A stretch of DNA of 64,000 bases, from positions 64,001 through 128,000 of the IMG/VR virus record IMGVR_UViG_3300027902_000006, one strand, 5' to 3'. Below are positions 13,364 through 17,788 of the stretch, in pieces (within the stretch, counting starts at the first letter, position 1; each line of letters starts with the position of its first letter). Made by a program: the position numbers and the translations under genes. Source of the stretch: a virus. The notes beneath the pieces were generated by a model, which saw only the letters and a list, made by a program, of their open reading frames with translations, searched no databases and had not been told where the DNA came from.

Positions 13364-13438
13364 TGGAGCGGGATGTAGGATTCGAACCTACATTCCCGAC
13401 CGGGCAGGTCGGGTCCTACCAACTTAAATGAATCCCGC
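13364..13438 (-). tRNA. atypical tRNA-Gly(GCC)
   Basis: GCGGGAT/ATCCCGC-T-CCA acceptor, CCGAC CT-GCC-CG GTCGG, GTAGG TTCGAAT CCTAC; weak D-stem, C37, A51-U63. Confidence 0.75.
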
Positions 13439-13514
13439 TGGGGTCCACGGTGGGGCTCGAACCCACAACTCAGAGTTTTAGAGGCTCCTGCTCTACCTAT
13501 TGAGCTACGCGGAC
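13439..13514 (-). tRNA. amber suppressor tRNA (anticodon CUA), Trp-like body
   Basis: GTCCGCG TA GCTC AATAGGTA GAGC A GGAGC CT-CTA-AA ACTCT GAGTT GTGGG TTCGAGC CCCAC CGTGGAC C CCA. Confidence 0.8.
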
Positions 13515-14579: not shown

Positions 14580-14654
14580 TGGAGCGGATGACAGGAGTCG
14601 AACCTGCAACAATCAGCTTGGAAGGCTGACGTTCTACCATTGAACTACATCCGC
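14580..14654 (-). tRNA. tRNA-Gly(UCC)
   Basis: GCGGATG TA GTTC AATGGTA GAAC G TCAGC CT-TCC-AA GCTGA TTGTT GCAGG TTCGACT CCTGT CATCCGC T CCA. Confidence 0.92.
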
Positions 14655-15317: not shown

Positions 15318-15719
15318 TTAAGATCTCTCAATTTTTTTCACCAGTTCAAAGAACACGTTTGCATCCAGAACGACTATTTCTTCTGTTCTTTCTGCCTTAG
15401 TTCTTCCTGTACTTTTTATTACTAATAACCAGTCCGTGTCTGGATAACAGTTAGTCTTAGCTTGTTCGACCCACTTACGAATACTCCATTGCTTTTGATT
15501 CTTACACTCGATCGTGAATGGTAGGAGGGTCCTGACATTAGGACTCATAATAACATCAGGTCCCGACTGACCCATCTGACGTGAGCGAATCTCGTGGTCA
15601 TCCGTATTGCCCCACTCAATTCCAGTTACCTCTGAAACTTGTTGACACGCCCACGCCTGTAAGGACCTTCCCTTTGCCTTACGACTCGCTACCGTGATTG
15701 GCTTCTTCTTATCTGACAT
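15318..15719 (-). CDS. PD-(D/E)XK nuclease, Holliday-junction-resolvase-like
   Basis: SRKAKGR..Q, MGQSGPDV, FTIECKNQ. Confidence 0.7.
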   Translation of the reverse strand: MSDKKKPITVASRKAKGRSLQAWACQQVSEVTGIEWGNTDDHEIRSRQMGQSGPDVIMSPNVRTLLPFTIECKNQKQWSIRKWVEQAKTNCYPDTDWLLVIKSTGRTKAERTEEIVVLDANVFFELVKKIERS

Positions 15720-15756
15720 ATATTTATTGTATCCATTCCAAGACAAAACTTCAATA

Positions 15757-15810
15757 ATATTAATCTGACTCCTTCCGATACGGAGACGCCAGAAGGAGCC
15801 AGATTAATAT
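15757..15810. terminator. long intergenic hairpin
   Basis: ATATTAATCTGACTCCTTC...GAAGGAGCCAGATTAATAT, 19-bp arm with one mismatch. Confidence 0.5.
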
Positions 15811-16343
15811 CATTTCAACGCATCGAAGTCATTGTGAAATTTAGGCATCTCGGTAATGGGTAGATAATCGCGTATAAATGGAACTACGAAGATTTGGCCC
15901 CCATGAAGTACGATTTTAAAATCACACGAATCTCGATCAAGAGTAGGAGTAGTAATGAGTAAACAATTCGACCTAGGCTGGTAACAATTACGACGCATTA
16001 TAAAAACTTTATGTCCGTTCAGTCGAAACTGCCTACCTCCTAGATGAGTGAGTTGCCCATCAAATCGGTTGAATAGATAACGCAAAAGTGTTTCGATTTC
16101 AGGGATGAATTTGACATTTCCCCAAGGACGAATAGGTTGTTTTAAATGAGCCGGTTTCTTTTTCCCCAACCTATTAAGGAGTTGATGAACATTCTGACGG
16201 GAAGTACCGATCTTCCTAGCAATAGCTGAACATGTAATTTTAGAATCAGTTTCAAATTCCATCAACATGTCCGCAGCAATCTTACCATGGTTATCCCTAA
16301 ACCTTTCTACTAACTCTTCTTCACTCTTCTTCCTAGCGCCCAT
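15810..16343 (-). CDS. HTH-domain DNA-binding protein
   Basis: SAIARKIGTSRQNVHQLL. Confidence 0.6.
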   Translation of the reverse strand: MGARKKSEEELVERFRDNHGKIAADMLMEFETDSKITCSAIARKIGTSRQNVHQLLNRLGKKKPAHLKQPIRPWGNVKFIPEIETLLRYLFNRFDGQLTHLGGRQFRLNGHKVFIMRRNCYQPRSNCLLITTPTLDRDSCDFKIVLHGGQIFVVPFIRDYLPITEMPKFHNDFDALK

Positions 16344-16878
16344 GTGGAATCTCCTTAAGTGAGTTAATTCTGATAACTCGGTGATGGATAGGACGACCCA
16401 AGTTCCAACTTCGGTTGAGAAGATAACACACTAGTCCACTCTCTGCTACTTCATTAGCTGTCCGCAGTCGATCCTCCACTATTCCGTCAAGTTGAAGTTC
16501 ATGAAGTAGTTTGACTTTGTCCTTACTCCGCGCCTGTAGAATCGTAAACTTTAATTTAGGAAAGTTATATATAAGCCAATCGTGAGTAGCAGCAATCAAG
16601 TCAGTGCGCCTAGCAGTAATAAAAAGTACAGGAGAGAACTTATAAATCTCCGACGCTCCTTCGTAGGGTTCTATCCCCATCCAGTGTTGATCAATAATAC
16701 TGAAAAAGTAATCCAAGAAGGGTTCAAAATATCCGGGTTGACAAATCTGTTCAAAGAAATCGTGTCTACTAATTCCTATATCGTCGATATCTACGTGCCA
16801 GTCTCTCCACATATGTTGTCTTAGAGGAGTAGTAACATCTGCTAGAGTTCCATCAATATCGAACGCTAAGTTTTCCAT
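16333..16878 (-). CDS. HAD-family 5'(3')-deoxyribonucleotidase-like
   Basis: FDIDGTLAD, ITAR, K, VEDR, RSWN. Confidence 0.8.
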   Translation of the reverse strand: MENLAFDIDGTLADVTTPLRQHMWRDWHVDIDDIGISRHDFFEQICQPGYFEPFLDYFFSIIDQHWMGIEPYEGASEIYKFSPVLFITARRTDLIAATHDWLIYNFPKLKFTILQARSKDKVKLLHELQLDGIVEDRLRTANEVAESGLVCYLLNRSWNLGRPIHHRVIRINSLKEIPHGR

Positions 16879-17548
16879 TTGTTTTTTGTATCTTTCGTAT
16901 CCAACGATACTTAGGTGGAGTTCTGATCCTCTTTAGTTTCAGTTCCTCTCTACTTTCCGCGAGTGTCTTTCCGTTCCTCTGGGCATATCTGAACACGAAA
17001 CGGCGGTGTCTTCGTCCTCCTCGATCATCTTCTAAATGCCATTCTGGATTTGTCATACCGTGTAAGGTAAAACCACAAGCTTTGTAAACTGTTCCCTCAT
17101 GACCATACTCAGGATCGGCAAAGGCAACAAGGCAATCGTGTTTATAAACCTTTAAGACCATCTTCGCAGTTAGTGCAATAAAGCGTGACAGTGGGTATTG
17201 TAGAGGAGGTTCACTTCTACACATTCTCTTTATCTCCAAGACTCTTTCAACTCCTAAGAAACGTGCTTGATATGGATTTACGCCTATCCCATATACTATA
17301 ATAGCATAAAGTTCAGAATTTGCGTAGAGTCCATAGCAGATATTTTTTCCAGTCGGCATTCTTTTTGAATAGTGCCACGTTTCTACCCACTTTTTTGCTA
17401 CGTTGTGTTCAATGGGTTTAATAAAGAAATGGAGCGGTGAAGTCGGATTCGCGCCGCTATCTTCCTCTTGGGACAGAGGGTATGCTGTCTTTGCACCATC
17501 ACCGCTTATCTCATCCAGTTTTCTCATCACTCGCAACGGTTCCATCAA
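16853..17548 (-). CDS. mom: Mom-family (GNAT-fold) DNA adenine hypermodification enzyme
   Basis: WHYS..MP, YGL, LEIKRM, SRFIA, AFADP..GH.GTVYKACGF. Confidence 0.7.
   Translation of the reverse strand: MMEPLRVMRKLDEISGDGAKTAYPLSQEEDSGANPTSPLHFFIKPIEHNVAKKWVETWHYSKRMPTGKNICYGLYANSELYAIIVYGIGVNPYQARFLGVERVLEIKRMCRSEPPLQYPLSRFIALTAKMVLKVYKHDCLVAFADPEYGHEGTVYKACGFTLHGMTNPEWHLEDDRGGRRHRRFVFRYAQRNGKTLAESREELKLKRIRTPPKYRWIRKIQKTNGKLSVRY
17430..17505 (-). ncRNA. tRNA-Gly-like cloverleaf embedded in the mom-like CDS
   Basis: GCGGTGA/TCACCGC-T-CCA perfect acceptor stem, GTGC/GCAT D-stem, CCTCT-GTCCCA-AGAGG anticodon arm, degenerate T-loop CGCGAAT. Confidence 0.7.
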
Positions 17549-17566
17549 TGTCGAAGGCTAAATTCA

Positions 17567-17788
17567 TTAGTTTGTCGGCCACAGAATTATGGCGTTTTTA
17601 GTTTCTTTGCTGTCCTCCTCTTCGTCTAAAATGTAACCTGAGTAGTCTGACTCAGGTACATAAGTCCCTAGATAAACGTCATGTGCGGGTGAGTAACTAT
17701 TCCCCTCAGAATCGGAAGAAAGAATAACGATGTAGTCATCTGGACACTCATCCAAAATCTCCTGAAGTTGTCTTACAGTAAGCGTCAT
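17567..17788 (-). CDS. hypothetical acidic protein
   Basis: GGGAGGAG SD; DSEGNSYSP motif. Confidence 0.55.
   Translation of the reverse strand: MTLTVRQLQEILDECPDDYIVILSSDSEGNSYSPAHDVYLGTYVPESDYSGYILDEEEDSKETKNAIILWPTN

Follow-up and report, generated by a model that had tools for sequence, protein, structure and literature searches.

A 64-kb window (the whole stretch of DNA analysed here, taken from the 140,478-bp, 92%-complete viral record IMGVR_UViG_3300027902_000006) contains a gene for a Mom-family DNA-modification enzyme that carries, within the 5′ part of its own coding sequence, a 76-nt tRNA-Gly-like element with an encoded CCA end. Comparison with homologous loci indicates that these 76 nt function as a structured RNA and belong, in diverged form, to a tRNA-Gly-like family that travels with Mom genes. 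The best supported reading, and on balance a probable one, is that the element acts as Mom's private glycyl carrier. An embedded tRNA-Gly-like locus in mom homologues is not new: McMurdie et al. (2011, BMC Genomics; PMC3146451) described a 76-bp tRNA-Gly-like 'pseudo-tRNA' within the initial 150 bp of the mom homologue carried by Dehalococcoides ssrA islands and predicted its tRNA-Gly-like fold, proposing no function for it and regarding Mom as an enzyme of methylation-type protection. The window element is a new member of this RNA known since 2011, sharing with the Dehalococcoides locus a 76-nt tRNA-Gly-like cloverleaf in the 5′ coding region of a Mom homologue and differing in its diverged loops and in its location on a 140-kb phage rather than an integrative island.

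The Mom protein and a conserved tRNA-Gly-like RNA

The preliminary description of this DNA, made from its letters, took the encoded protein for a Mom-family adenine-modification enzyme, and both profile and structure searches bear this out. The PF25680 hidden Markov model (HMM; curated cut-off 27.1 bits) matches residues 41–224 with 102.4 bits (E 3.3e-29), and a profile of 36 homologues matches the sequence of Mu Mom (8bv8_A; E 5.4e-13); the window protein has 268 database relatives. The AlphaFold model has a mean predicted local distance difference test (pLDDT) score of 85.6, rising above 90 from residue 41, and its top match in the PDB is the crystal structure of Mu Mom S124A (8bv8; E 1.5e-10, template modelling score 0.59–0.67, about 22% identity by Foldseek), generic GNATs reaching E 1e-5 or worse. 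The donor named in the same description, glycyl-tRNA-Gly, is likewise that of Mu Mom, a Gly-tRNAGly-dependent N6-carbamoylmethyl-adenine synthase, an activity demonstrated only for that enzyme and for two mined homologues; any of the three tRNAGly isoacceptors serves Mu Mom whereas Gly-tRNAAla does not, a specificity that the authors credit to the 3′ end and the amino acid (PMC13219725). This Gly-tRNA dependence dates from 2023 and 2026, and the authors concluded that Mu scavenges host tRNA (PMC13219725). Mu Mom, of the same family and fold as the window protein, relies on host tRNAGly and lacks an embedded tRNA. The paper on Gly-tRNA-dependent Mom (PMC13219725) does not mention a tRNA-like element or its embedding, and our literature searches found no paper joining the tRNA-Gly-like element to Gly-tRNA-dependent Mom.

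Ahead of the catalytic domain, a minus-strand cloverleaf had been proposed with a perfect acceptor stem, discriminator U, encoded CCA, D arm, an NCC-containing anticodon loop and a degenerate T loop, all translated in frame. The minimum-free-energy (MFE) structure of 17505..17430(–) is this cloverleaf (–24.1 kcal/mol), with each of the listed parts present (Table 1), and the reading frame agrees: translated in the Mom frame the element gives GDGAKTAYPLSQEEDSGANPTSPLH, and its CCA ends one base ahead of codon 41, at which both the Pfam match and the well-predicted part of the AlphaFold model start. Taken alone, the window fold is weakly better than chance (z –1.87; 8 of 200 shuffles equally good). 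ARAGORN called six tRNAs in the window, the element's interval not among them, and the Rfam tRNA model (RF00005) gave no match to the element at E up to 10 in searches of 141 nt and 8 kb. By its 6-nt anticodon loop, its bulged T stem and its failure to reach the RF00005 threshold, the window copy departs from canonical decoding tRNAs. Its significance comes from homology, its own family alone recognising the copy.

Table 1. Positions of the Mom gene, the parts of the embedded element and related genes in the window
Feature	Position	Strand	Basis or details
Mom-family open reading frame (ORF), maximal extent, 231 aa	16853..17548	minus	PF25680
Mom catalytic (GNAT-fold) domain, aa 41–224	16877..17428	minus	Pfam, AlphaFold, PDB fold match
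76-nt tRNA-Gly-like element	17430..17505	minus	MFE fold, covariance model R1, nhmmer
Acceptor stem GCGGUGA/UCACCGC	17505–17499 / 17440–17434	minus	perfect 7 bp; MFE fold; U8 next
D arm	17496–17482	minus	4-bp stem GUGC/GCAU
Anticodon stem CCUCU/AGAGG and loop	17474–17469 (loop)	minus	5-bp stem; 6-nt loop GUCCCA
T arm	17458–17441	minus	5-pair stem AGCGG/CCG(A)CU, bulged A 17443, loop CGCGAAU
Discriminator U73	17433	minus	
Encoded CCA	17432–17430	minus	
Canonical tRNA-Gly(UCC)	14580..14654	minus	ARAGORN; Rfam 75.6 bits
tRNA-Gly(GCC)	13364–13438	minus	ARAGORN; low-scoring, Rfam 34 bits
18-codon remnant, 5′ end of HAD-like gene	17511..17567	minus	MNLAFDIDGTVASDEKTG and stop; ATG 17567–17565, TGA 17513–17511
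Intact HAD-like gene (phrog_420)	16333..16878	minus	

The family was assembled from 24 viral and 59 metagenomic homologous loci. A covariance model built from 44 homologous elements with the window sequence left out (R1) scores the window copy at 77.0 bits (E 2.8e-18) over its full length 1–76, as its top match in both the window and the complete record; the phage's genuine tRNA-Gly(UCC) obtains 55.4 bits only. An nhmmer profile of 13 homologous elements, from which the window copy was also left out, picks out the same 76 nt at E 7e-10. Pairing and covariation were counted in an alignment of 47 distinct elements (A3), in which 97.6% of pair cells are paired and 18 of the 21 pairs show both-sided, compensatory changes; none of 500 shuffles attains any of five pairing measures, slid controls are 39–53% paired, and RNAalifold, unaided, gives the identical cloverleaf including the T-stem bulge. 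Covariation among homologues, put forward earlier as a check on the fold, is thus found in a conserved cloverleaf. The window copy keeps all 21 family pairs and contributes the family's sole A-U at the outermost T-stem pair, a compensatory change; its loops have diverged (hexaloop GUCCCA, T loop CGCGAAU, D loop AAAGACA without GG). The observation of an embedded cloverleaf is confirmed and is far from chance.

Bacterial glycyl-tRNA synthetase (GlyRS) reads G1-C72, C2-G71, G3-C70, U73, C35 and C36 as its identity set. As the preliminary description had listed for the window, all six items occur in this copy, and they are invariant or at least 90% conserved across the family: G1, C35, C36, G71, C72 and the bulged A of the T stem are invariant, and C2, G3, C70, U73, CCA, A37, U8 and A14 are conserved in at least 90% of copies. 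The hallmarks of the family are a 6-nt anticodon loop N-N-N-C-C-A, the T-stem bulged A and U73-CCA, all present in the window copy; the commonest hexaloop is AUUCCA (18 of 41 copies), and position 34 varies (U, C or A). The D and T loops occur in the combinations GG/UUC (28), AG/UGC (6) and YG/CUC (5), a co-variation that is suggestive and possibly reflects few events only. At nine of the 24 viral loci ARAGORN reports a two-base-anticodon tRNA, that is, one with a 6-nt loop, exactly at the Mom 5′ end, and the Rfam tRNA scores of homologues (26–38 bits) straddle the gathering score of 29 bits.

Selection on the RNA and its arrangement with Mom genes

The relatives share a conserved N-terminal stretch, C-G-D-S-S-x-A-E-L-P-L-F-Q-x-x-D-G-G-S-[I/T/N/H]-P-T-S-P-L-[Q/H]-F, which at the DNA level is the tRNA, GGnGGTTCGAnTCC corresponding to the T arm and GGTGATAGCTCA to the acceptor end and D stem. 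Four lines of evidence show that selection acts on the RNA, not on this peptide. Mean nucleotide entropy at the three codon positions is 0.63/0.80/0.86 in the element and 0.89/0.83/1.57 in the first 36 codons of the Mom domain, so that the element is more conserved in nucleotides than the adjoining catalytic domain, and the 30 nt upstream of it are nearly free (1.81). Residues 1–40 have pLDDT below 57 and no secondary structure in the AlphaFold model, although they are conserved in the alignment. Close relatives lacking the element begin M-x(1-4)-F41 with a Shine-Dalgarno site in front. Finally, the anticodon stem is exchanged whole (CCCCU/AGGGG, GGAAC/GUUCC, CUAAC/GUUAG), the encoded residues changing too. 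For the element-less relatives R1 found no match in the flanks or the whole records, including that of a 96%-complete 35.9-kb phage; in the protein tree they are nested, with moderate support, within the element-bearing clade, which suggests two or three losses of the element. The locus is a clean natural example of a single sequence under selection in two capacities, as RNA and as a dispensable peptide.

The Mom frame lies at A76+2 in all 48 elements analysed, that of the window included, and is open through the element in 44 of them. Candidate in-frame starts in the window are TTG 17548, ATG 17545, GTG 17530 and ATG 17527, the database gene call (P0001) beginning at GTG 17530; past the CCA of the element, the first in-frame start in the window is Met64, already part of the conserved core. 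We reject an arrangement in which the tRNA is a separate upstream gene and Mom starts after it, since the window offers no ATG, GTG or TTG from A76 up to that core. Where Mom begins with the element, the closest in-frame ATG usually precedes G1 by 4–13 nt, often behind AAGGAG, and at five loci the only possible start (ATG, GTG or TTG) is within the D loop. A promoter and terminator scan around the mom gene gave nothing above shuffles.

A scan that started from the RNA, in which viral contigs were searched with the bulged T-arm motif alone and with no reference to Mom, yielded 68 R1-confirmed matches at E 1e-6 or better, and a script combining nhmmer for the element with the Mom-domain HMM located 53 elements. 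Twenty of these sit directly against the 5′ end of a Mom domain, and five more join them if partial HMM alignments are taken into account; another 19 follow a Mom domain encoded on their own strand, at or beyond the 3′ terminus of the Mom ORF; and eight have no Mom in the fetched stretch, several of them at a contig edge. Among 16 downstream cases inspected, the element falls within the last Mom codons in nine, again read ..GGS[I/T/N]PT.., the Mom stop codon lies within its first 7–14 nt in five, and it begins 12 nt past the Mom stop in two. An element at the 3′ end cannot gate initiation, so the common denominator of the two arrangements is co-transcription with Mom, which favours a trans-acting RNA.

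In another Mom lineage, on viral contigs (L236, L243, L246, L250, L256, L281, L288, L289 and L292), the element occupies the last 25–30 codons of the gene, with an anticodon loop that often has seven or five nucleotides and an end that is often U-CAA, not U-CCA. Locus L029, and likewise L030, has two tandem Mom genes, each with its own element (1197–1272 and 1930–2005 in L029); the second L029 Mom is very divergent (PF25680, E 4e-29), and the likeness between the elements greatly exceeds that between the Mom proteins, a hint that the element evolves in concert or is a place where modules are swapped. Scanning genome contigs with the protein pattern found no relatives; the T-arm motif there gave true R1 matches at four of 80 loci (L100, L135, L145 and L168), the remaining matches being mostly chance ones in GC-rich genomes. 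The match in L100, a Dehalococcoidia metagenome-assembled genome, scores 74.7 bits with R1 and runs on into a Mom-like frame. No such element was found within 2.5 kb of Mom at five sampled loci of cultured phages (Synechococcus, Enterococcus, Listeria and Corynebacterium phages). Mom genes often stand beside tRNA clusters: at L037 a canonical tRNA-Gly(UCC) lies about 850 nt downstream of the element-bearing Mom (positions 2412–2486 and 2580–2650), and in Synechococcus phage S-SSM7 (L092, positions 2092–2406) the Mom-like gene comes after four tRNA genes.

A probable private glycyl carrier and its alternatives

Of the two mechanisms proposed in the preliminary description, a private glycyl carrier and a substrate-mimic operator for autoregulation, the comparative data favour the carrier, although the two roles may coexist. 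In the carrier model the element RNA would be transcribed together with mom, and host tRNA-processing enzymes would excise it from part of the transcripts, RNase P acting at G1 and 3′ trimming proceeding to the encoded CCA. Host GlyRS would then charge it with glycine through G1-C72, C2-G71, G3-C70, U73, C35 and C36; the hexaloop and the bulged A, the latter in the part of the T stem read by EF-Tu, would keep it out of translation; and the resulting private Gly-tRNA pool would serve Mom in forming N6-carbamoylmethyl-adenine in the phage DNA. We infer the processing, the charging, the exclusion from EF-Tu and the ribosome, and the use by Mom. Given a start codon upstream of the element, each transcript could act either as mRNA or as tRNA precursor.

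Several features are consistent with this model. Because Mu Mom takes each of the three isoacceptors and recognises the 3′ end, GlyRS accounts better than Mom itself for the unvarying C35 and C36. Decoding relies on a 7-nt loop, from which the hexaloop differs, and the bulged A falls within the three T-stem pairs that EF-Tu reads and that set its affinity (PMC3239215). A tRNA-Thr read in frame within the ribonucleotide reductase (RNR) gene of the same phage (see below) provides a precedent for a tRNA inside coding sequence. Other observations weigh against a private carrier. Excision at G1 would part the start codon from the body of the Mom coding sequence, so that carrier and enzyme would compete for one transcript. 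The weakened elbow of the window copy, with its diverged D and T loops that ARAGORN and Rfam fail to recognise, could make it a poor RNase P substrate. Close Mom relatives, including the one on the 35.9-kb phage, manage without the element, and together with the use of host tRNAGly by Mu Mom this implies that it is not required for catalysis. The presence of one element per tandem Mom paralogue at L029 would be more easily explained by a role in cis.

Such a role is the chief alternative, to which we assign a minor but appreciable probability: a tRNA-like fold in the mom mRNA, alone or bound by Mom as a substrate mimic, would block or slow the ribosome at the gene start and so limit a potentially toxic DNA modifier, in the manner of the thrS operator, and it could coexist with a carrier. 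The translation of Mu mom is also controlled via mRNA structure, by Com, which counts for this alternative, as do the short distance from the nearest in-frame ATG to G1 at most 5′-type loci, often with AAGGAG, the five loci whose only start is inside the D loop, where fold and initiation would be mutually exclusive, and the retention of one element by each tandem paralogue. As a general explanation, however, the operator is weakened by the 19 of 53 elements from the RNA-first scan that lie at or after the 3′ end of the Mom ORF, out of reach of initiation. In the window itself the nearest start (ATG 17527) is 22 nt upstream, beyond the usual initiation footprint, and a protein binding the acceptor end would need neither the invariant C35 and C36 nor a conserved elbow.

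The other explanations are far less probable. A role of the 76 nt in the DNA itself, as a recombination or attachment site through which mom cassettes are moved or exchanged in the way that integrases use tRNA genes, would accord with the duplicated HAD 5′ end flanking the inserted mom cassette of the window and with the closer likeness of the two L029 elements than of their Mom domains; we nevertheless judge it improbable, as compensatory changes that keep pairs point to selection on the RNA fold and not on DNA identity, the left junction of the cassette in the window is upstream of the element and not within it, and the element-carrying Dehalococcoides islands integrate at ssrA and not at the element (PMC3146451). 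An unusual decoding tRNA, which during phage translation would decode glycine codons or induce frameshifts through its 6-nt anticodon loop, is slightly less probable again: the ARAGORN calls on homologues, their Rfam scores around the gathering score and the tRNA cluster of the phage speak for it, but the family conserves a hexaloop and a bulged T stem that do not match the requirements of EF-Tu and the ribosome, the element goes with Mom genes rather than with tRNA clusters, position 34 is free to vary, and the phage already carries two canonical tRNA-Gly genes. Least probable of all, and to our minds scarcely credible, is the view that an extended ORF simply runs over a tRNA gene in decay, or over a fold that arose by chance, and that the 76 nt now have no function. 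The modest z score of the window copy on its own, its being missed by generic tRNA finders and the tRNA-rich region around it would fit such a relic, which is contradicted by the R1 E-value, the 21 kept pairs with their one unique compensatory pair, the covariation of the family and a nucleotide conservation above that of the adjoining catalytic domain.

Known systems offer partial parallels to the window locus. The E. coli thrS operator mimics the anticodon arm only, lies in the leader and is never charged, and in the thrU-tyrU-glyT-thrT-tufB co-transcript the tRNAs are upstream of an independent start codon. In both, as in the window, an mRNA includes a tRNA mimic or tRNA genes and encodes a protein that acts on the tRNA concerned; in the window, however, the start codon is followed by a complete cloverleaf, CCA included. 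Similar in proposed logic are the staphylococcal non-proteogenic tRNAGly, which escape EF-Tu and feed FmhB/FemA/FemB (Rietmeyer et al., 2020; PMC7826273): GlyRS-charged variants, poorly handled by EF-Tu and the ribosome and reserved for a Gly-tRNA transferase outside translation, with distinguishing features, like those of the element, in the D and T arms. Their genes stand alone in the chromosome, their anticodon loops have the normal 7 nt and their function has been shown by experiment, whereas the window RNA overlaps the coding sequence of its own enzyme, has a hexaloop and a T-stem bulge and has a role proposed from sequence comparison. If the carrier reading is true, an RNA that has borne the annotation 'pseudo-tRNA' since 2011 would gain a function, and the staphylococcal tRNAs a first viral counterpart. 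A broader proposal, which seems to us evenly poised between true and false, is that the Mom genes of this clade are two-part modules, cassettes of about 700 bp that combine the enzyme with a dedicated translation-incompetent glycyl-tRNA overlapping its first or last codons, charged by host GlyRS and hidden from EF-Tu by the bulge and hexaloop, the use of the transcript as mRNA or tRNA precursor setting the ratio of enzyme to donor. The existence of a widespread Mom clade equipped with a deformed tRNAGly of its own suggests that rivalry with EF-Tu over Gly-tRNA is of consequence for DNA hypermodification.

The mom cassette and its neighbourhood

The window contains a minus-strand replication module encoding RNR, a DNA polymerase, a DnaB-like helicase and a UvsX-like recombinase. 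Upstream of mom, the start codon of the HAD-like remnant (Table 1) overlaps the stop of an ORF at 17567..17788 (TAATG), and its TGA ends 6 nt upstream of the element. The starts of the remnant and of the intact HAD-like gene share a 23-nt core (17561–17539 versus 16869–16847) with 21 of 23 positions identical, and this duplicated 5′ end (17511–17567 and 16847–16878, minus strand) brackets a cassette of about 690 bp comprising mom and the element; the last eight codons of the Mom ORF are read from the 5′ region of the HAD gene in another frame. A related phage (L335) has the same RNR...HAD-PDDEXK-tRNA synteny with no Mom and no element (HAD region 2447–3115). Judged by these flanks, the mom cassette is an insertion, and the HAD remnant marks its left edge.

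A second case of a tRNA within coding sequence occurs in the same genome. The ORF of the RNR large subunit (19060–21318, minus strand) reads in frame through a canonical tRNA-Thr(UGU) at 19143–19217, translated as residues 701–726 (LGWRSSTEEQSPCKAQVAGSIPIASP), and past it ends in a Cys-rich tail, MCPDCGELLDMGGGCSTCPWCGWSNCS and stop; this tail begins with ATG and so could be a separate small ORF. The same layout is seen in L335 (ORF 2–1201, tRNA 974–1049). Abutting tRNA-Gly(GCC) is a tRNA of amber-suppressor type with anticodon CUA (13439–13514, minus strand), labelled 'Pyl' by ARAGORN. TAG ends nine of 52 long minus-strand frames and is thus still used as a stop, so wholesale TAG recoding is not evident. 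Between a PDDEXK-like ORF (15318–15746) and a helix-turn-helix ORF (15810–16343) lies a near-perfect hairpin of about 85 nt (15740–15824), which surfaced as a spurious mir-3914 match (33 bits).

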